A stretch of DNA of 64,000 nt from Planctomicrobium piriforme. Lineage in GTDB: Bacteria; Planctomycetota; Planctomycetia; Pirellulales; UBA1268. The stretch covers positions 5,219 through 69,218 of the forward strand of contig CAMBPQ010000004.1 in NCBI GenBank assembly GCA_945869735.1. Direction: 5' to 3'. A program made the position numbers and the translations under genes. Shown piece by piece: positions 1 to 44,427 of this stretch; the stretch's first letter is position 1; each line of letters begins with the position of its first letter. The notes beneath the pieces were generated by a model that saw nothing but the letters and a program-made list of their open reading frames with translations, did no database searches and had not been told where the DNA came from.

Positions 1-1413
1 GAGGCCGCCGTTCCGCGAGAAGCAGTCGACGATCCGCCGCCGCCAGTCGACGAGCGAGGCCGCGTCTTGGGGACTGTTCTTCCACGATACGACCTCGCGA
101 CGCCCCGTCCGCCAGGTGAAACTCGCGGCGTTTCGCGGCGTCAGAAAACAGGCGTCCGCCGGCGTGTGGTCCCGGGTCCAGTCGCAGATGTCGGCCCAGG
201 CAGTTGCTGCCATCTTGGAGTCGCTGCGTGGCGCGAGCCATGCACGGCCTGGCAGTGGCCAGTGGAGGCTCTGCACGGCAAGATCGGCAAGCAGGACCGC
301 CACCGTCAGGCCTCGGACAACGGCAGGCCGCGCGCCGATCACACGGCCGCATAGAGTCTCGTCCTCGAGGAGCGCGGCGACGGCCGTCGCCAGCGCAAAG
401 GGCACCGCCACGTCGGCGAGCCGGAACCAGTAGTAGCGGAGGAGCCCGTGCACCGCTGCCGGTGCCCATGGCTCGGCGGCAGCGATCACGTGGCCCGTGA
501 GCGAAAGGCCAATCGCAGCCAGCGTAAACGCGGCAATCCGGTCGCGTGCGGCCGACGCGGGAAGAAGCCTGTGCAGGAGCCACCACCAGGCGATCGCGAG
601 CACGTGCCGAGCCACCATGCCATCGGCGAAGGTCCGCGGCAGCAGGTGATGCGCGAGCCGCTCCACCACGTAGATCCGGGTCGCCTCCCCCCGCACATCA
701 GCCGCGACGCCGGCTGATAATCCGAGCGCGGGCACGACTCCCGCTGCAGCCAGCAACAGGCCCACGGCCACGAGGGCCGTGGCGACGCCGCGGGCTTCCG
801 GGGCAGCCGGCCGCCCCATCGCCAGCCACGTCGCGATGGTGGCGACGAGGGCCCAGCCGCCAACGATCGGATGAAACGCCGTGGCCACGCCACACAGGCA
901 GACGGCCCACGCGAACCGGCCGCGGGCGATCCCGCCGAGCCCCCCGAGCACGAAGGCCCACGCAAACACCTTCGCCTCGCAGCCGCCGATCACCCACTCT
1001 CCGGCCGCGGTCGTGTTGCGAAGCGCCAGCGCGAAGAGAGCCGCCGCCAAGACGCGGGCCCAGCCCGAGCACAGCAGCGGAACAATCGCTCGGCGAAAGC
1101 CGATTGCAAGCGCCGCCCAACCGATGATCCGCCCGATCCACGCCGTCGGTTCCAGCGGCAAGGCCGCAGCGATCGGCCCCATGAGGAGATAGAAGACACC
1201 GTGGGCGTCAGGCGTTTCCAGGAAAAAGTCGCCCTGCGCCCAGGTTGGATCGGCCGCGTGGCGGGCTTTCGTCAGGTAGACCGTTTCGTTGACGTCAGGC
1301 ACGGGCCATGCCCCGGCCGCGGCGAACACGAGCAGGATCAGCAGCCACTCGACCACGGTGCCGAGCCGAGCCGCCGCTTCACTACCGCCACTTTCGCCGC
1401 GCCATGTCCGCAT
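1..1413 (-). CDS. polytopic integral membrane protein (uncharacterised, possibly GT-C-like); 3' end lies beyond window start
   Basis: Absent from the supplied ORF track because it has no stop inside the window. Hand translation of the minus strand from ATG 1413-1411 (in-frame TAG immediately upstream) gives MRTWRGESGGSEAAARLGTVVEWLLILLVFAAAGAWPVPDVNETVYLTKARHAADPTWAQGDFFLETPDAHGVFYLLMGPIAAALPLEPTAWIGRIIGW... There is no stop for 471 codons down to position 1. It has repeated hydrophobic helices and G/C-rich third positions. The listed ORFs in 67-1419 are other frames. Confidence 0.75.
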   Translation of the reverse strand, partial: MRTWRGESGGSEAAARLGTVVEWLLILLVFAAAGAWPVPDVNETVYLTKARHAADPTWAQGDFFLETPDAHGVFYLLMGPIAAALPLEPTAWIGRIIGWAALAIGFRRAIVPLLCSGWARVLAAALFALALRNTTAAGEWVIGGCEAKVFAWAFVLGGLGGIARGRFAWAVCLCGVATAFHPIVGGWALVATIATWLAMGRPAAPEARGVATALVAVGLLLAAAGVVPALGLSAGVAADVRGEATRIYVVERLAHHLLPRTFADGMVARHVLAIAWWWLLHRLLPASAARDRIAAFTLAAIGLSLTGHVIAAAEPWAPAAVHGLLRYYWFRLADVAVPFALATAVAALLEDETLCGRVIGARPAVVRGLTVAVLLADLAVQSLHWPLPGRAWLAPRSDSKMAATAWADICDWTRDHTPADACFLTPRNAASFTWRTGRREVVSWKNSPQDAASLVDWRRRIVDCFSRNGGL

Positions 1414-1481
1414 CTATAACCTCGTCGACTCTCGGGTCGCACGGCGGCCTCTTCATCGCCGACCGCAGGATACATGATCCG

Positions 1482-2432
1482 ATGGCTACCCGTACCTCCG
1501 CCGAGCCTCGCCCTGCACCCGATGGCGCGGCGACGGCGGCCACCGGTGCCGCGCTCAGGCGCGGCATCGAAACCGAGACGCTCGGCATCGTGGGGGCCCC
1601 CTTCGCGCTCGCCGCGAAACTCGTTGAGTCGGCCGGCTTTGACGCGATCTACCTCTCGGGCGCGGCCTTCTCGGCCGGTACGCTAGGTGTGCCCGACATT
1701 GGGCTCTTTACGCGGGACCAACTCGTCGAGCAGACGCGAATCCTGGCCCGCGCCGTCACGATCCCCATTGTCGTCGACGCCGATACCGGCTTCGGCGGCC
1801 CGGACGAGGTCGCCACGACCGTGAGGTTGCTCGAGGAGGCCGGCGCCGCCGCGATCCAACTCGAGGACCAGCGGGGGGCCGACAAGCGGTGCGGCCATCT
1901 CGCCGGCAAGCAGGTGGTCGACCCTGCCGAGATGTGCGCGAAGATAGCCGCTGCCGTGGCCAGCCGCCGCGATCCCGACACCGTCATCATCGGTCGCTGC
2001 GACTCGCGGAGCGTGCACGGGTTCGATGACTGCGTCTCCCGTCTGCGGGCCTACCGCGATGCCGGCGCCGACTGGCTCTTTCCGGAGGCCCTCGCGTCAC
2101 GGGACGAGTTCGCCCGCGTCGGCCACCAGTTTGCCGGCTCCCTGCCCCTGCTTGCCAACATGACGGAGTTTGGCACGAGCCCGCTGATCTCGATCCCAGA
2201 CCTCGCCGATCTGGGATTCACGGCCGTGCTCTATCCCGTGACGCTCATGCGGCTGGCGATGAAGGCGATGGAAGCGGGCCTCGCGATCATCCTCGCGGAG
2301 GGATCCCAGGAGAGCCTGCTCGACCTGATGCAGACACGGGAGGAGCTCTACGGGCTCCTTGACTACGATCCCACGCATCCGGAACGCCACCGCTTCGCAC
2401 GACCCGTATCCCCGCAGGAGCCCACCTCATGA
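1482..2432 (+). CDS. prpB: methylisocitrate lyase / PEP-mutase-isocitrate-lyase superfamily enzyme
   Basis: ORF 1308-2432. Start moved to ATG 1482 (MATRTSAEP...) because the upstream part overlaps the divergent gene and promoter region. Family-typical stretches IVVDADTGFGG and AAIQLEDQ..KRCGH are present. The stop overlaps the next start (ATGA at 2429-2432). Confidence 0.85.
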   Translation: MATRTSAEPRPAPDGAATAATGAALRRGIETETLGIVGAPFALAAKLVESAGFDAIYLSGAAFSAGTLGVPDIGLFTRDQLVEQTRILARAVTIPIVVDADTGFGGPDEVATTVRLLEEAGAAAIQLEDQRGADKRCGHLAGKQVVDPAEMCAKIAAAVASRRDPDTVIIGRCDSRSVHGFDDCVSRLRAYRDAGADWLFPEALASRDEFARVGHQFAGSLPLLANMTEFGTSPLISIPDLADLGFTAVLYPVTLMRLAMKAMEAGLAIILAEGSQESLLDLMQTREELYGLLDYDPTHPERHRFARPVSPQEPTS

Positions 2433-3601: not shown

Positions 3602-3792
3602 TGAGAGCGCATTCGGCTGTGGTGGATCGCCGGCTCGGGGGCGGCAAAAGTCTCGTCGCTGAGGGCCGCGGCGGCCCGACGCTCCTTGAGCGTTCGCCGA
3701 CCCCATCGCCTACCTCGTCCAAGATGCCATCTCGCAAGATGCCATCTCGCAAGATGCCATCTCGCCGCTCCACCGAAAGCGGTTGCGCTCTA
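3602..3792 (+). repeat. R1 MITE-like element, copy A (carries internal 3 x 15-bp expansion)
   Basis: TGAGAGCGCATTCGG..GTGGATCGCCGGCTCGGGGGCGGCAAAAGTCTCGTCGC...GAGCGTTCGCCGACCCC...CTCGCCGCTCCACCGAAAGCGGTTGCGCTCTA. Homologous to copies B-H. The last 3 nt (CTA, 3790-3792) are the stop codon of the minus-strand DUF1573 gene. Confidence 0.85.
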
Positions 3793-37631: not shown

Positions 37632-37860
37632 AGGCAGCCCCAAGCGCGAGCGCGGGGAATGCAGGTCGTATCGAGACGGTGCCGGATTGGTTCGCCGGCG
37701 GTGACATGCTCGCCGCCGGGGGATTTTGCTCCAGGATGCTCGCTTGGCCGACTGGGCATCGCTCGTGAGTCGCAAACATTCCCCGACGTCTGCGCGTGCC
37801 TCCGACCGGCTCCTCACGATCAGAAGCCGGTGCCTCTCGCCAGGCAAACCCAATCGCATT
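37632..37860 (+). repeat. R3 repeat, copy 2
   Basis: Aligns with 5621-5845. Same orientation and same position relative to an upstream plus-strand gene end. Confidence 0.8.
37702..37737 (+). terminator. terminator-like hairpin inside R3 copy 2
   Basis: GCCGGCGG-tgacatgctcg-CCGCCGG then GGGATTTTGC, ~120 nt downstream of the response-regulator stop. Confidence 0.3.
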
Positions 37861-38027
37861 CGCGGGGAATGCGCGTGCCATCCCAATCCGCTCCCCGCCA
37901 GCATCACGGTCGTCACCCGCCTTCCCATCGCTTGCGCTCCGGGCTTCTTGAGGGCACGCTCATGCCGTGGAGCGACGTGACTTTTGCCGCCCTCGAGCCG
38001 GCGATCCACCAAAGCAGTACGCGCTCC
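37843..38027. repeat. R2 element (with insertion) fused to a deletion derivative of R1
   Basis: TCGCCAGGCAAACCCAATCGCATTCGCGGGGAATGC...CCCATCGCTTGCGCTCCGGGCTTCTTGAGGGC (R2), then ..GACTTTTGCCGCCCTCGAGCCGGCGATCCACCAAAGCAGTACGCGCTC. In the latter, the R1 left-TIR and right-TIR sequences are joined directly. Confidence 0.7.
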
Positions 38028-38140
38028 AGGCTGCCCCGTTTACCCCGATGACCGGGCCATGACGTGGTCTTGACCCGTCGCGGCGGACGCGGGTATTTCT
38101 CCCGGCTCACGGCTCGTTTCCCGCACAGGATTCTGTACCC

Positions 38141-41008
38141 ATGCCACGCCCCCGCATCCAGCCACATGCGCGCAAACCGATCCGTTGCACCGGGTTCGCG
38201 ACGGCCTATCGGCATCGCGTCGTCGCGGTAGCGGTCATGCTCGCATGCGGATCAGCTGCCCCGTTGGGATGGGCTGAGGAACTGCCAGCCCCGGCCCCCT
38301 CGACCACCGCCGACGAGGCGACCGCTCGCCGGGTGATCGAGGATGCCATCGATCGGGCCTCACAACCGCGAACGCTGCCTCCCCAAGGCTCCGCCTCCGC
38401 CTCCGCCCCCGGAATCGCCACATCGGACAACCTCCTGCTCGCGCGGCTCTCCGCCGAGGTGGCGGCGAAACAACTCGAGGCGAAGCGTCTGTCGCAGAAA
38501 TCACCGTCTGACGCCCTCGATCTCCTCGATGCCACGGCGAAGAGCCTCGACGGGCAACCGCTGCCGGAGGAGACCAAAACGCAGATGCTCCGCCGCATCG
38601 AGCGCACGCGGCGCGATATCGAGGAGGCGACGGGCAAGCGGCGTGCCGAACTCGCCCTCGACAAGCAAAACGCCCAGGTCGAGTCCCGGATCGACCGGGA
38701 CCGAGCCCAGCGGGTCGAGGTCGACCAGCGGATCTCCATGCTCATCGAGGAATACAACGCACTCGTCGACGAGCGACGATTTCCAGAGGCCGAGGCGATC
38801 GCGAAGAAGGCCGGGCAACTCGCGCCCGACAACGCCGTCGTGCGGCAGTTGCTCGCACAGAGTCGGATGATCCGCCGACTCGACGCCCAGAGGTCGATCG
38901 ACGGGGAACGTCAGGCAGGCTTCCTCGACGTGGCCGAGGACGTCGAGGGTTCGGCCACACCATTCGCAGGTTCCATCAAGTTTCCTGACACGAAGGACTG
39001 GCAGGACCTGACCAAGTCGCGGACGCAGCGACTCGCGGAGGGCCGGTCGCGGGCCAGTGCCATCGAGATCGCGATCCACAAGAAACTCGAGACGCCGGTG
39101 AAGCCATCTTACCGGGCCCAGCCGCTCTCGACGGTGATTGACGCCCTGGCCAGGCAGGCCGACGTGGCGATTCATCTCGACATGGTGGGCCTCGATCAGG
39201 AGGCAGTCCGCAGCGACACGCCCGTTACGCTCGCCCTCGACCAGTCGATCTCGCTGAAAAGCGCGCTCAAACTGCTCCTGGAGCCGCTTCATCTGGGCTA
39301 CGTCGTCAAAGACGAGGTGCTGAAGGTCACGAGCCCAAGGCTCGTGAAGGGGGATGTCTACGCGGTCACCTACCCGGTCGCCGACCTCGTGCTGCCGATC
39401 CCCAACTTCTCATCCGACGGTCTCGGCATCACCGGCGCGCTTCGCGACGGCTATTCCCAGATCGCCTTGCGAAACAACCTCGCCGTGCAGGTCGGTCCGC
39501 CGCCCTCGGGAATCAACGCCGGACCGGCCCACGCCGGTGGTCATGCGGCCCTCGACGGGGCCTCACTGGCGCAGTTGCAACTCGGCGGCGGCGGCCCGCC
39601 CGTGACCGGCTCGACGCCTTCCATCCCGTTCGGTCCGCCATCCGTCGGCGGCGGACAGCAGAACTTCCAGCCACTCATCGACCTGATTCAGAGCACCGTG
39701 GCCCAGGACTCGTGGGACACGACCGGCGGCCCCGGCGCGATCCGACCGTTCGAGACGAATCTCAGTCTTGTCGTCAGCCAGACGCAGGAGGTGCATGAGG
39801 AGATCGCCAACCTGCTCGAGCAGCTCCGCCGCCTGCAGGACCTGCAGGTCACGATCGAGGTCCGGTTCATCACGCTCGCCGACACCTTCTTCGAGCGGAT
39901 CGGTGTGGATTTCGACTTCAACATCCAGACCAATGTGAGCGACCCGCTCAACATGACGGCGATCCCGACGCAGGGCAACGGCTCCACATCACCGTTCAGC
40001 CAGGGCATCAACGCGGCGCCCGGCGGCCGGTCGCAGACCATTGGCCTCGACAACACGGGCAACCCCGGCGTGGCTCTCTACAACGCGGGCGGGGGTATCG
40101 GGCAGGGCGGAGGCATTGGGCAGGGCGGGGGTATCGGACAGGGCGCCAATACCGGCCAACCAGGCCGCAACTTTTATTCCATCCCGTTTCGACAAAACAG
40201 TTTCGGCAGTGCGACCGTGCCAAGCCTCCCGGGGCTCCCCGATCCGGCGACGAGCGCGGCCAACTTCGGGTTCGCGATTCTCTCCGATATCGAGGCCTAC
40301 TTCCTGATCCAGGCCGCGCAGGGCAACACGCGGTCGAACGTCATGCAGGCCCCCAAGGTCACGCTCTTCAACGGCCAGCAGGCGTTCGTTTCCGACACGC
40401 GGCAGCGGCCGTTCGTCACGGCAGTCATACCGGTCGTCGGAGACTTCTCCGCGGCCCAGCAGCCGGTGATCACCGTGCTCAATGAGGGCACCGCGGTTAA
40501 TGTCCAGGCAGTGGTCTCCAACGACCGGCGGTTCGTCCGGCTCACGCTCGTGCCGTTCTTCTCCCAGATCGGCCGTGTCGAGCAGTTCCAGTTCGAGGGC
40601 TCGCGGTCGACCAAATCCAAAACCAGCGACGAGAAGAGCGGCACTGATGTGAACGTGCCCGGGGCGAATGGACTCGTCGGCCTGACCAGCGGGGCCGCCG
40701 CGACTGGTGAACTCGAACTCCAGTCGAACGGCACCACCATCCAGCTGCCGGAGTTTCTGTTTACGACAGTCACGACGACCGTCAGTGTGCCCGACGGCGG
40801 CACGGTGCTGCTTGGCGGCATCAAGCGGCTCCGCGAAGGCCGCAACGAGTTTGGCGTGCCGATCCTTTCAAAGATCCCCTACATCAACCGGCTCTTCAAG
40901 AATGTCGGCATGGGACGCACCACCGACAGCCTGATGCTGATGGTCACACCGCGGATCATCATCCAGGAGGAAGAGGAGGAGAAAATCCTCGGCACGAGCA
41001 GGCCCTGA
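38141..41008 (+). CDS. secretin-family outer-membrane channel protein (GspD/PilQ-like, long coiled-coil N-terminus)
   Basis: 955 aa. Signal peptide ..VAVAVMLACGSAAPLGWA. STN/secretin-N-like ..PLSTVIDALARQADVAIHLD..ISLKSALKLLLEPLHLGYVVKDEVLKVTS. C-terminal secretin domain ..VMQAPKVTLFNGQQAFV....VSVPDGGTVLLGGI......GVPILSKIPYINRLFKN...LMLMVTPRII. Confidence 0.85.
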   Translation: MPRPRIQPHARKPIRCTGFATAYRHRVVAVAVMLACGSAAPLGWAEELPAPAPSTTADEATARRVIEDAIDRASQPRTLPPQGSASASAPGIATSDNLLLARLSAEVAAKQLEAKRLSQKSPSDALDLLDATAKSLDGQPLPEETKTQMLRRIERTRRDIEEATGKRRAELALDKQNAQVESRIDRDRAQRVEVDQRISMLIEEYNALVDERRFPEAEAIAKKAGQLAPDNAVVRQLLAQSRMIRRLDAQRSIDGERQAGFLDVAEDVEGSATPFAGSIKFPDTKDWQDLTKSRTQRLAEGRSRASAIEIAIHKKLETPVKPSYRAQPLSTVIDALARQADVAIHLDMVGLDQEAVRSDTPVTLALDQSISLKSALKLLLEPLHLGYVVKDEVLKVTSPRLVKGDVYAVTYPVADLVLPIPNFSSDGLGITGALRDGYSQIALRNNLAVQVGPPPSGINAGPAHAGGHAALDGASLAQLQLGGGGPPVTGSTPSIPFGPPSVGGGQQNFQPLIDLIQSTVAQDSWDTTGGPGAIRPFETNLSLVVSQTQEVHEEIANLLEQLRRLQDLQVTIEVRFITLADTFFERIGVDFDFNIQTNVSDPLNMTAIPTQGNGSTSPFSQGINAAPGGRSQTIGLDNTGNPGVALYNAGGGIGQGGGIGQGGGIGQGANTGQPGRNFYSIPFRQNSFGSATVPSLPGLPDPATSAANFGFAILSDIEAYFLIQAAQGNTRSNVMQAPKVTLFNGQQAFVSDTRQRPFVTAVIPVVGDFSAAQQPVITVLNEGTAVNVQAVVSNDRRFVRLTLVPFFSQIGRVEQFQFEGSRSTKSKTSDEKSGTDVNVPGANGLVGLTSGAAATGELELQSNGTTIQLPEFLFTTVTTTVSVPDGGTVLLGGIKRLREGRNEFGVPILSKIPYINRLFKNVGMGRTTDSLMLMVTPRIIIQEEEEEKILGTSRP

Positions 41009-41012
41009 ACCC

Positions 41013-41426
41013 ATGATGCGATTCAGCATGATCGCCGGAGCCGTGCTGGGAGCCGTGTCCGTGGCCGGAGGCGCCTTCGGGGCCCACGGGCTGAAGGACA
41101 CGCTCGATGCGACCGGCCAGGCTGCCAACTGGGAAACGGCCGCTCGCTACTGCATGTATCACGCGCTGGCCCTCCTCGCACTCGGCCAGCTCGCCGGTCG
41201 GCGACCAGTGGCCTCGTGGCCGTTCACGGCAGCTGCATGGTGTTTCCTGGGGGGCACGCTGATCTTCAGCGGCTGCCTGGCGGCCCTCGCACTCTCCGGC
41301 GTGAAAATCCTGGGCGCTATCGTGCCGATCGGCGGCGTGCTCTTGATCGCCGGCTGGCTGCTCATGGCCCTCGCGGCGGCGGCCGAACGCGAGAGTCCGC
41401 CGCACCCACGAAGCGAGCGGCTTTAG
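41013..41426 (+). CDS. DUF423 (YgdD/TMEM256-family) small membrane protein
   Basis: ..AGAVLGAVSVAGGAFGAHGLK....A.RYCMYHALALLALG.. is typical of DUF423. Starts 4 nt after the secretin stop. Its TAG stop is the first 3 nt of repeat copy G. Confidence 0.85.
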   Translation: MMRFSMIAGAVLGAVSVAGGAFGAHGLKDTLDATGQAANWETAARYCMYHALALLALGQLAGRRPVASWPFTAAAWCFLGGTLIFSGCLAALALSGVKILGAIVPIGGVLLIAGWLLMALAAAAERESPPHPRSERL

Positions 41427-41676
41427 AGCCCATTCGAGCTACGTGGATCGCCGGCTCCCGTCAGGAAGCCCCAAGCACGAGCGCGGGGAATACGGCCCGC
41501 CACCCCATCCCATCGCTTGCGTCCGGGCTTCCTGAGGGCCGCGGCGAGATGGCTCCTTGGAGGAGGGAGGCAAGGGGGTCGGCGAACGCTCGAGGAGCCT
41601 GGGGCGTATTCTCGCCCCGGCGACGAGACTTTTTCCGCCCCCGAGCCGGCGATCCACGTAAGCCGAGTGCGATCTA
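41424..41676. repeat. Composite element G: R1 left terminus + nested R2 + inverted R1 body, stop-to-stop between convergent genes
   Basis: 41424-41456 is TAGAGCCCATTCGAGCTACGTGGATCGCCGGCT. 41457-41538 is R2 (CCCGTCAGGAAGCCC...GGGCTTCCTGAGGG). 41539-41676 is the R1 body in reverse orientation, ending GCCGGCGATCCACGTAAGCCGAGTGCGATCTA. The outer 16 nt TACGTGGATCGCCGGC are a perfect inverted repeat. Confidence 0.85.
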
Positions 41677-42534
41677 GCGAGCGGCCTCGACCTCGGCCTG
41701 CGCGTCCCTCTGCTCGGCGGTGTTTTCGGACTCCGTAGCTCCCTGCTCCGCCTGCTGATCCTTCTGCTCCGCCACGTTCTCCCGCTCGGCCGCCAGCTGT
41801 TCTACCTGCTGATCGGCCTGCTCCGGTCGGTTCGCGGTATCAAACCCGTCAGCGGCGGGCTGGTCATCGCCCCCGTTCTCCCCCTTCGGCTCGGGCATTT
41901 CCTCCGCGGCCGGTGCGGCCTCCTCCGCGGGCACGGCGTCGGCCGCCGGTATACGCTCGGCATCGTTCCGCTCACCTTTGAATGGGTTTTCCTCATCGAC
42001 GACACGCTCGGTCGCCGGACGGCGCCGGCGGAGCACGTCGGGCTCCGCCCGTTCAACATCGAGGTAGCGCATCTGATTCCGACGGCGATCTTCCTGCAGT
42101 AACGCGACGCGGGCTCGTGTGCGATGGCGTTCAAGCTTGAGGCGGTCGCAGCCCTGGACCCGCTCCAGCGAGCGAGCCACGGGCCATAAACCCGTTCCCT
42201 CAGCCTCCTGTTGTGCCCCTGCGGCGAAGTCTGCTTCCGACTCGTCGAGCCTTCCCAGCTTCAGCGCGACGAGCCCGCGGAAGTAATAAGCGCGGGGATC
42301 AGCCGTTCCGGCCTCGATCACCTGCGACATGTCGTCGTAACTCCGCTGATAATCACTCGCGAAGTATGCATGCACGCCATCGCCGTACGTGGCCGCAAGA
42401 GACGTGCTCTCGATCGTCGGCACCGCCGCCGGCACCGGGCCTTGGCTATGAATGCCCGCCAACGCGAACACGGCCGTGGCCACGAAACGCCCTACGCTTT
42501 CCCCTCGGGATGCACCGACGTGAACGACTGCCAT
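41674..42534 (-). CDS. hypothetical secreted protein, TPR-like N-half and Glu/Gln-rich repetitive tail
   Basis: ORF 41674-42717 trimmed to ATG 42534 (MAVVHVGASRGESVGRFVATAVFALAGIHS..). ..PRAYYFRGLVALKLGRLDESEADF.. is TPR-like. The tail has ..AEQKDQQAEQGATESENTAEQRDAQAEVEAA. Confidence 0.65.
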   Translation of the reverse strand: MAVVHVGASRGESVGRFVATAVFALAGIHSQGPVPAAVPTIESTSLAATYGDGVHAYFASDYQRSYDDMSQVIEAGTADPRAYYFRGLVALKLGRLDESEADFAAGAQQEAEGTGLWPVARSLERVQGCDRLKLERHRTRARVALLQEDRRRNQMRYLDVERAEPDVLRRRRPATERVVDEENPFKGERNDAERIPAADAVPAEEAAPAAEEMPEPKGENGGDDQPAADGFDTANRPEQADQQVEQLAAERENVAEQKDQQAEQGATESENTAEQRDAQAEVEAAR

Positions 42535-42664
42535 GATCAACCCCTTCCGGCCAACGGACCCCATCCGGCACACGGCCGAGACGCCACTTCGGCTATCGAC
42601 TGATTGTACCTTCCCGACCGGGACCCACTCGTCCGTGCCGGCACAACCGCCACCACCCCACCGC

Positions 42665-43180
42665 TCACGACGGCCGCAGGGTTTCTCCGTCCCCGGCAAG
42701 CCCCCGGGCCGTCGCATGGCGTCGAAACGTCGCCTCGTCGAGAAAGACGGCCGACCGCACGAGTTGCATCATGAGCGGCTGGCCCGGCCAGCCGAAGCCG
42801 CCAAGCAGACGGTCGAGGTCGGACGCAGGGCAACTCCCCTTCAGGTCGACGAGGAGCACCCGGCCATCCTTCTCAAAGGCATTGCCGTCGACCTGCCACC
42901 AGGCATGGTTCCCGGCTTCCGTTGTGAGGTCACGGGAACTCGTCCACACGAAAGAGCCGTCGGGCTCGGCATACAGCCGCTCGAACCTCCCGAGCCGCTG
43001 CAGCGCGTCGTCAAATTCGATGGACATGGGCGTGGAGAGGGCTGCCTTGGGCACGGCGAGAGTCGGCCACGTGCCCCACGCGTCGGCCAGGGTGTCACCC
43101 GCGATCGCCTCGGCGGGCCGGACATGGAGCGTGATGTCGAAGGCATACAGCGGGGCGTGTTGCATCTCACCAGACATCAT
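42665..43180 (-). CDS. hypothetical protein (171 aa), translationally coupled to the upstream gene
   Basis: ORF 42665-43213 with start placed at ATG 43180, which overlaps the upstream stop (ATGA, 43177-43180). No recognisable motif. GC3-biased. Confidence 0.6.
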   Translation of the reverse strand: MMSGEMQHAPLYAFDITLHVRPAEAIAGDTLADAWGTWPTLAVPKAALSTPMSIEFDDALQRLGRFERLYAEPDGSFVWTSSRDLTTEAGNHAWWQVDGNAFEKDGRVLLVDLKGSCPASDLDRLLGGFGWPGQPLMMQLVRSAVFLDEATFRRHATARGLAGDGETLRPS

Positions 43181-44427
43181 GCCGCATCGACGACCGTGCC
43201 GCCATGGTCCCAACGCTGCATCGAAGAATCGATCGTGACCACCGGATCCTGCCGTTCTCCGGACACGATCACCTCTTCGCAGATCCCTGCGTCGCCGCGG
43301 TGCAGCGCCAGGACGACCGGACCCTGCCCGAATCGTCTGCTCACCGTCGCCCCAGCCGCGGACGGGCAGGCAGCTCCCTCCCAGGCGATCTGGCCTGGAT
43401 GGCCGATCAGCGACCGGTTTACGGTTTCATCACGGGCCCGCGGGCGGCCGGAAGCTGCCCACCCCGCGAGCCGGTGCACTCCCACCGGGATCACGACGTC
43501 GGCATCGGCCGACCGAAAGGCATGGTCAAACCATCCCGCGAGACAGTGCAGGGCGTCGAACTCCACCTCGCAAGAAGGCACGCACCGGCGCGCCTCGACA
43601 AGCCACCCCGCCACCGCACGTCGCCACGCCGATTCGATCGGCTCGATCTCCAGCAGAGCATGATGAGGCAGGTGTCGCCGCCACGCGCCCACAGCAAAAG
43701 GTATCTCTACGGCCGGGCATGCCACGATCGCCCGGAGCAGCGCGACCACGGGCCCGGCGACGGCACCCCGGCCGACGGAGGCGACGAACCGGGCGACCAG
43801 ATCGACCGCCACGCTCTCCGAGAGCGTCGGTGTCCGGCCACCAGACACCGTCGGGCTCTGCTCGTCAGAGCGGTGGCACGCCGGATCGAGGTCGTGACCG
43901 TGGCGGATCGAGACGTCGGCGTTTTCCCACCGTTCGCCCATCGCAAACTGCATCCGGGCAGCGAACCTCGCGAACTCGGCGAGCGCGAAGTCGCGGTCGC
44001 CGGCCAGTAGCGTCACTCGCACAGGCACGATGGCGTAGTCACTGCCAGGACGGCCTCGGCCATCGGCCATCGGCACCGCCAGACCCTGGCGGGCCCAGCG
44101 GGCCAGCGTCACCAACAGCCTGCGGGCGGATCGCACCGACCCGACGGCGACGCGGAGCCGCGCCTCGCGTGCCGACGCGCCACCGTGCCAGGGCCGTACT
44201 CTGCCGCACCACTCGGCCGACACCAGCCAGTCGAACGTGTCGCCAGCGACGACAAGGTCGAGGCCGTCGATGGGACGATACCCGCCGTCACGGCGAAACC
44301 CACCGCGGACCGCAGCACGGTGGATGGCCGACGGCAGCGTCGCCTGCCAGCCCGTAGAGGACCGTAGAGTAGCGGACCGAAGAAGTGTGCCATCCCCGAT
44401 GGCCCAGTTGGACGTGACAACGAGCAT
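43177..44427 (-). CDS. hypothetical protein with degenerate calcineurin-like metallophosphoesterase motifs
   Basis: 416 aa. MLVVTSNWAIGDG (compare SDxHxG), DLVVAGDTFDW (GDxxD), VTLLAGDRDF (compare GNHD/E), IRHGHDLD (GH). The metal-ligand positions in motifs I and III are substituted. Confidence 0.65.
   Translation of the reverse strand: MLVVTSNWAIGDGTLLRSATLRSSTGWQATLPSAIHRAAVRGGFRRDGGYRPIDGLDLVVAGDTFDWLVSAEWCGRVRPWHGGASAREARLRVAVGSVRSARRLLVTLARWARQGLAVPMADGRGRPGSDYAIVPVRVTLLAGDRDFALAEFARFAARMQFAMGERWENADVSIRHGHDLDPACHRSDEQSPTVSGGRTPTLSESVAVDLVARFVASVGRGAVAGPVVALLRAIVACPAVEIPFAVGAWRRHLPHHALLEIEPIESAWRRAVAGWLVEARRCVPSCEVEFDALHCLAGWFDHAFRSADADVVIPVGVHRLAGWAASGRPRARDETVNRSLIGHPGQIAWEGAACPSAAGATVSRRFGQGPVVLALHRGDAGICEEVIVSGERQDPVVTIDSSMQRWDHGGTVVDAA

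Follow-up and report, generated by a model that had tools for sequence, protein, structure and literature searches.

How did the gap between two convergent genes come to hold pieces of two repeat families, with the same kind of end of one of them at both of its outer limits? The locus that raises this question lies in a 64,000-nt stretch of DNA (hereafter the window; C4:5219–69218) from a metagenome-assembled planctomycete genome (MAG; 3.17 Mb in 128 contigs, 95% complete, 67% G+C). Here, the spacer between a DUF423 gene and a convergent gene of 347 aa measures 253 bp, both stop codons counted (41424–41676). An initial annotation read this spacer as a single composite element—referred to below as G—in which a complete copy of one repeat, R2, is nested in a copy of another, R1. 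It proposed that G may represent the ancestral or active form of R1, or else a recombination product.

Profiles of both repeats were built genome-wide, and R1 matches were collected with nhmmer. Parsed with these profiles, the gap reads as (i) R1 161->128, inverted, (ii) R2 2–82, and (iii) R1 24–161. R2 thus has an R1 terminus on one side and an R1 body on the other, and the gap is indeed one composite (Table 1). The R1 part is identical to consensus positions 26–162 at 130 of 137 positions. The description of R2 as complete applies to its ends, both of which are canonical, but not to its interior: R2 measures 75 nt between TCAGG and CTTGA, 37 nt having been lost between GCCACCC direct repeats, while the modal length of complete copies is 112 nt (46 of 79 copies). 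Where the left arm meets R2, the two overlap in a 3-nt microhomology, CTC, which rises to 7 of 8 nt with the usual GCCTC flank of R2 included. Taking R2 out of G leaves a right-type arm next to left-type inner sequence, which corresponds to no known R1 sequence. Finally, the element runs from stop to stop, as annotated: the DUF423 stop TAG (41424–41426) takes its TA from the flank and its last base from the left arm, whose first G it is, and the stop of the convergent gene is likewise made up of TA and the first G of the right arm.

Table 1. Positions of element G, its component parts and neighbouring genes in the window, and of the related insertion sequence in a congener.
Feature	Position	Strand	Remarks
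DUF423 gene	41013..41426	+	PF04241, 1.1e-24, residues 20-108; ends CTT TAG
Left arm, inverted solo R1 right-hand terminus (consensus 161->128)	41424..41457	-	31/34 identical to terminus consensus
Left half of perfect 18-nt inverted repeat TACGTGGATCGCCGGCTC	41440..41457	.	partner 41643-41660
R2 hairpin repeat	41455..41539	+	canonical ends CTCCCG...GAGGGC; arms 41458-41471 and 41525-41538; 37-nt internal deletion
R1 (IS630-type MITE by its features), consensus position 26 to 161	41541..41676	+	own 25-nt left TIR missing
Right arm, right-hand terminus of the resident R1	41643..41676	+	ends in TA (41675-41676)
Convergent 347-aa gene	41674..42717	-	weak TPR match; stop CTA 41674-41676, ends CGC TAG
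Intact 1015-bp IS630-family IS, CTAG-bounded	L065 (G007:C61) 1083-2097		similar loci L066, L068, L069

A 10-nt direct repeat, AGCGAGCGGC, flanks G and was considered as a target duplication. This candidate was rejected: the two copies, which lie in the DUF423 tail and in the 3' end of the convergent gene, are both native and are also present in relatives. The C-terminal tail of DUF423 (...RSER) is common to this genome and to relative G063. At positions 41426–41431 the left arm reads GAGCCC where the family has GAGCGC, a rare C that is seen in 7 of 225 termini; GAGCCC is also native in G063 (L014), at the aligned position of the DUF423 tail. On the thin evidence of these 6 nt, the outermost bases of the left arm could be native DNA that was joined by microhomology.

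The two arms of G (41424–41457 and 41643–41676) are 34 nt each and 82% complementary, with 28 of 34 positions matched. The perfect 16-nt inverted repeat that had been reported is real and in fact two bases longer, forming an 18-nt run (TACGTGGATCGCCGGCTC, 41440–41457/41643–41660). Within the window, the 16-mer matches without mismatch at these two places only, and at up to three mismatches it has 11 matches versus 1.8 expected; genome-wide, the exact 18-mer is present 15 times. Among 116 full R1 copies, arms match at a median of 19/34 and a maximum of 25/34 positions, with a longest perfect run of 13. The claim that G has a better TIR than canonical R1 therefore stands, and no better TIR exists in the genome. 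Six mismatches fall in the outermost 16 nt of the arms, however, so that next to the cleavage site the TIR shows no such advantage.

Genome-wide scoring typed 142 of 156 left termini as left and 227 of 230 right termini as right. By the same scoring, the left arm of G scores 26 when compared with the right-terminus consensus and 7 with the left-terminus one, and it is right-type at 5/5 diagnostic outer positions. Both outer ends are consequently of one type, as the initial annotation had it, the type found being the right-hand one. The R1 part of G keeps the left-type inner sequence GCGGCGAGATGG; G hence joins two different pieces and is not an in-register same-end element. Relative to the right-terminus consensus, each arm has three private changes, all of which fall in the outer 16 nt and none of which is shared (a typical R1 terminus departs from the consensus at 6/34 positions). 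Since all of these changes are unshared, the perfect 18-mer marks no more than the part of the family terminus that is best conserved. The pattern fits a pair of arms that would be independent descendants of the family terminus, rather than a recent copy of one arm. Some inner part may still have been copied from arm to arm, given that the exact 18-mer is carried by only ~6% of other termini.

R1 has a 162-bp consensus with CTAG at both boundaries and imperfect 25-nt TIRs. It is non-coding and dispersed, with 261 nhmmer matches (~137 of them full length) that amount to 1.1% of the genome. The outer 11 nt of R1, TAGAGCGC(A/G)TC, recur exactly at both ends of a congeneric 1015-bp IS630-family insertion sequence (IS), which encodes a 308-aa DDE_3-type transposase and is bounded by C-TA-GAGCGCGTC...GACGCGCTC-TA-G. 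Judged by these sequence features—shared TIRs, TA/CTAG ends, small size, lack of coding capacity and many copies—R1 is an IS630-type MITE, and the 1015-bp IS is likely to be its autonomous partner in the genus. The two ends of the autonomous IS are distinct from each other, and left-right forms dominate among the MITEs. When the left and right types of R1 are compared with the IRL and IRR of the IS, the scores differ by 1–3 matches only; in one G009 subfamily, the left arm resembles the end of the IS that lies downstream of its transposase gene.

A degraded IS630-family transposase remnant (DDE_3, PF13358) directly follows an R1 copy at C26:1007–1830. A long repeat and an R2 module interrupt the remnant, at whose end lies an inverted R1 left-type terminus. 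In R1 copy A of the window (3604–3735, minus strand), a 15-nt unit, GCGAGATGGCATCTT, is present three times in tandem just inside the left arm. Mini R1 copies of ~65 bp, which consist of the left arm and the right arm alone, are found at C65:3233, C52:1256, C20:44447 and C98:5707; the joint in these copies, between GCGGCGAG and CCGGCGATCC, is an internal deletion at a short microhomology.

R1 ends read CTAG more often than any other tetranucleotide (93/370, 25%), and the remainder are mostly one-step mutants; the commonest of the non-CTAG ends are CGAG, CTCG and TGAG. With only 25% of ends still CTAG, mutation of the flanking TA is evidently frequent except where it is part of a stop codon. 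Of 370 R1 ends, 102 terminate an open frame of ≥100 codons, compared with 19% of random TAGs; among 125 canonical R1 copies, four lie stop-to-stop. R1 inserts at TA, preferably at CTAG, and its ends therefore often become TAG stop codons; stop-to-stop placement follows from this targeting in a 67% G+C genome, where stops are among the few TA sites available. The position of G between two stop codons is thus no special property of the element.

R2 is a hairpin repeat that is unrelated to R1. It is built on a 38-nt module, CCCGTCAGGAAGCCCCAAGCGCGAGCGCGGGGAATACG, which has ~406 matches genome-wide; complete copies form the hairpin, and R2 is also found as half copies and in arrays. Its 5' module is common to a longer (~270-nt) TIR-bounded repeat. 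No match to RAYT (Y1 transposase, PF01797) was obtained in this 95%-complete genome, while control genomes did match, and a classification of R2 as a REPIN was rejected because no RAYT was found.

The initial annotation also took G as proof that R1 and R2 interact. This is so in the sense of physical nesting or abutment only, which is common: genome-wide, there are 52 R1–R2 pairs that are ≤12 nt apart. Twenty-four of these 52 junctions belong to one amplified chimera, with an inverted R2 module at R1 position ~41. Fusions of R2 to a right-type terminus occur at C46:8946–9010 and C6:21277; their breakpoints are unlike those of G, and each lies at a short microhomology. Mosaics joined by microhomology are common in this genome, and G is one among many.

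In the amplified chimera (~24 copies), the inverted R2 module stands in place of R1 positions 1–40, with GACGGGAGG joined to CAAGGGGG (examples at C46:24231, C41:13956, C8:11149, C10:64958, C14:24162 and C67:8475). Upstream of the chimeras lies a full R1 in some cases, and in others a ~190-nt repeat that also starts with the R2 module. Elsewhere in the window, at 37838–38028 (C4:43056–43246), a full R2 of the 112-nt type is followed, after ~16 nt, by an R1 fragment (consensus 103–161); the breakpoint of this abutment differs from that of G.

G itself is found once. Convergent right-type cores ≤450 bp apart form five pairs genome-wide, one of which is G and two of which (C24 and C36) are separate head-to-head copies; the junctions of G are absent from the other convergent core pairs across the genome. 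A BLAST-type search of 67 congeners returned no junction-spanning match to the left 157 bp of G, and the apparent partial spans in this genome are R2 array flanks. Nor was an R2-free fusion (a right-type arm with GCGGCGAGATGG within 8 nt) detected at ≤3 mismatches in 68 genomes; a looser pattern (2 mismatches) had given GC-rich noise only, after which the stricter pattern was used. Together, the lack of junction matches and of an R2-free fusion indicates that G has not been amplified, either with or without R2. As a mobile unit, G would be expected in more than one copy with these internal junctions at unrelated sites, and no second copy was found in this genome or in the 67 congeners.

Same-end (right-right) elements do occur elsewhere. 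A pattern search detected them in congeners G040 and G009, where they are ~158 bp long and have near-perfect, ~36-nt right-type TIRs. They are a minority of the left ends scored (~3/20 in G009 and 2/9 in G040), most copies in these genomes carrying a distinct left-type arm. Two of the same-end loci look orthologous between G009 and G040, and the inner left sequence of these copies is unlike that of G. In the present genome, the R1 copy at C6:6347–6509 has a left-type outer arm with a right-type inner patch substituted in register, while a mini copy at C70:4353 is made of two right-type arms. Symmetrised arms arise sporadically and repeatedly.

More than 25 congeners have the DUF423 gene next to the convergent gene. 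The spacer between the two genes is empty in five congeners, where it measures ~15 nt (TGA ... TCA). G has TA at both of its ends; empty sites are seen only in distant relatives, in which the stops are TGA and no TA is present, and in the close strain the site is filled. The spacer of G063 holds a full R1 of another subfamily, which ends at the same stop codon as the R1 of G. In G035, the nearest sampled species, the spacer is occupied by a 111-nt R2 and a different hairpin repeat, with a degenerate R1 right terminus at the same stop. Relatives recovered from metagenomes carry R1-type elements in the spacer in either orientation, and one locus (L125) has two adjacent elements with oppositely oriented cores. 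Mobile repeats have landed in this spacer again and again, and its occupancy by two head-to-head elements is seen.

The further hairpin family seen in these spacers has arms GGGGCTGCCCGTGCCCCG, with 26 arm matches in the present genome (G000). It lies in the DUF423 spacer at L013 2120–2251, L015 1288–1419 and L014 ~1945; by genome, it is present in the spacer of G035, G015 and, in part, G063, and is absent from that of G000 and G014. Because its presence here is lineage-specific (G015 versus the close relative G014), shared occupancy of the spacer is not proof of orthology.

A second strain carries the same composite. Metagenome contig Ga0049084_10020216 (L089) was recovered by a protein-based metagenome scan; a separate scan with the DUF423 tail as an exact pattern had returned nothing. 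The contig is 98.99% identical to window positions 40603–43269 over 2,662 bp, and the three parts of G and their junctions are unchanged in architecture. Between the two strains, G (253 bp) differs by 8 substitutions (3.2%) and by a 5-nt indel in the R2 loop, while the flanks (2,410 bp) differ by 14 substitutions (0.58%). Within G, the right arm shows no change and the left arm one, the interior having changed more. G is fixed in two strains and is diverging ~5x faster than its flanks, like unconstrained DNA. A mis-join or collapse of repeats might be suspected in a short-read, 128-contig MAG that is rich in 80–160-bp repeats, since de Bruijn assemblers can be confused by inverted repeats; such an artefact is hardly credible here. 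The same parts and junctions are present in a separate record that is 99% and not 100% identical, which largely rules out assembly error, the junction microhomology of only 3–8 nt is too short for a k-mer mis-join, and the two flanking genes are adjacent in more than 25 relatives.

We consider it probable that G is a single-copy mosaic that was assembled in place, by insertion, the joints being formed afterwards through illegitimate recombination or templated repair. That G arose by recombination or repair is the likeliest account, and this half of the initial proposal is favoured by its single copy, its apparently independent arms and the frequency of mosaics in this genome. The backbone is one R1 copy whose own 25-nt left terminus is gone, with R2, including both of its canonical ends, and a 34-nt inverted R1 right-hand terminus in its place. 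We infer both the order of events and the repair mechanism, and two routes can be put forward. Along the first, which we hold tentatively, R2 would have nested at position 25/26 of a single resident R1. The outer left arm would later have been re-copied from a right-type terminus during repair, with rejoining at a microhomology with the 5' end of R2 (CTC, or GCCGGCTC versus GCCGCCTC). This route needs few events and accounts for the exact ends of R2; its weak point is that 10 right-type inner bases would have been added, and not substituted in register as they are at C6:6347. Along the second route, which is possible though somewhat doubtful, a second R1 would have landed head-to-head with the first (as at L125, C24 and C36), and the resulting ~330-bp near-perfect palindrome would have been resolved by deletion around R2, leaving only the 34-nt arm of the second R1. 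Long perfect palindromes are unstable in bacteria. The deletion endpoints would have to be flush with R2, however, and the exact R2 ends are awkward for this route; they fit a true R2 insertion better than two arbitrary deletions. No intermediate states of the locus were found, and the sole close strain already carries the finished composite.

Other origins are less probable than assembly in place. A local inversion was rejected on logic, as it cannot remove the left-type terminus and at the same time supply another of the right type, and homologous recombination between inverted R1 copies was rejected because it regenerates normal copies. The initial annotation had named uniqueness combined with a local inversion or an assembly error as the finding that would overturn its reading; the arrangement is unique, but is neither a simple inversion nor an assembly error. 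A single transposition of a pre-formed composite would also leave TA at both outer ends, and is unlikely. The reading first offered for the locus, in which a same-end R1 variant, ancestral or more active, would have transposed here as a unit and been hit by R2 then or earlier, appears improbable to us as well. It would agree with the outer TAs, with the best TIR in the genome, with the intact R2 ends expected of a nested insertion, and with the existence of same-end copies, with ~36-nt near-perfect TIRs, of related R1 subfamilies in G009 and G040; furthermore, the mariner element Mos1 with two right ends was 26 times more active in vitro than its natural left-right form (PMC4505599). Yet G is single-copy here and across 67 congeners, and the expected R2-free form is absent from 68 genomes. 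The same-end copies of G009 and G040 are sporadic, not amplified, and have a different inner left sequence; the ends of the autonomous IS are not alike, and left-right MITEs dominate. G itself has six mismatches in its outermost 16 nt, retains the left-type inner GCGGCGAGATGG, contains a deleted R2 and diverges ~5x faster than its flanks. The idea of an ancestral or active form is not borne out. It is conceivable, though rather unlikely, that same-end copies are a recurrent product of arm-to-arm templated repair and make better transposase substrates, by analogy with the mariner constructs. G, C6:6347, C70:4353 and about three G009/G040 loci would then be independent instances, and recurrent symmetrisation would be a natural birth route for MITE subfamilies with long perfect TIRs.

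A selected function would not be exclusive of any of these origins. G is predicted to fold as a panhandle around the R2 and R1-core hairpins, with energies of -75.1 kcal/mol as DNA (z -4.45) and -147.5 kcal/mol as RNA (z -6.5), and the panhandle might act as a bidirectional terminator, an insulator or an RNA-stabilising structure between the convergent genes. Such a role would be in line with the strong fold, with the fixation of G in two strains, and with arms that show 0–1 changes while the interior changed more; the fold, however, is a trivial consequence of a make-up of inverted repeats. A terminator scan (GC-rich stem-loop plus T run) found no site in 41200–41900 on either strand, and an Rfam scan of 41000–42000 gave one sub-threshold miRNA match and no family. 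The high divergence of G, including the indel in the R2 loop, and the fact that relatives manage with an empty ~15-nt spacer also make a selected role very doubtful. Under the preferred reading of assembly in place, G is now a fixed, passively decaying spacer that supplies both stop codons, and is neither an ancestral nor a currently mobile form.

Comparison with known systems places G in familiar company. R1 resembles the IS630/Tc1-mariner MITEs of other bacteria (RUP of Streptococcus pneumoniae, Correia/NEMIS of Neisseria and Nezha of cyanobacteria) in being small, non-coding and high-copy, and in its imperfect TIRs, its TA/CTAG ends, its termini shared with an IS630-family IS and its sites at gene ends. 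G differs from these elements in having two right-type termini, no left one, and a foreign hairpin repeat inside; it is also single-copy, whereas the RUP, Correia/NEMIS and Nezha families are defined by many like copies. The ERIC/RU-type repeats of enterobacteria include variants with internal insertions, and TIMEs are mosaic non-autonomous elements. Like both of these, G is a short palindromic repeat with extra modules, composed of parts of different small elements. The longer variants of ERIC/RU and TIMEs are recurrent, however, while here the recurrent chimera is the one with R2 at R1 position 41, and the junctions of G are unique.

In having both ends of one type in a Tc1/mariner-type element, G also resembles the two-identical-end constructs of the Mos1 and Mboumar-9 mariners (PMC4505599). 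Those constructs, which show that end symmetry can alter the efficiency of transposition, are engineered and eukaryotic, and their activity was measured; nothing points to mobility of G, whose outermost bases are degenerate. R2, for its part, shares with REP/REPIN-BIME sequences an abundant ~38-nt module that is present singly, as hairpin-forming inverted doublets and in regularly spaced arrays, but the latter are mobilised by RAYTs (PMC2817692), and no Y1 (RAYT) transposase is detectable in this 95%-complete genome. With its 5' module shared with the ~270-nt TIR-bounded repeat, R2 looks more MITE-like than REP/REPIN-like.

G is therefore an unremarkable MITE copy, mosaic or nested, that was made locally, and a single example of an already known class. 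Alone it is of little importance; it documents how dense populations of a MITE and a hairpin repeat build chimeras in a small freshwater planctomycete genome, and it shows a TA-targeting MITE donating the stop codons of both of its convergent neighbours. Three by-products of the analysis may be of wider use: (i) a two-strain comparison in which the composite is real, fixed and decaying at a roughly neutral rate, (ii) the example of one short convergent spacer that has been struck repeatedly in related lineages, and (iii) a small natural set of same-end elements, which is usable for studying whether end symmetry has an effect on IS630-type transposition in bacteria.
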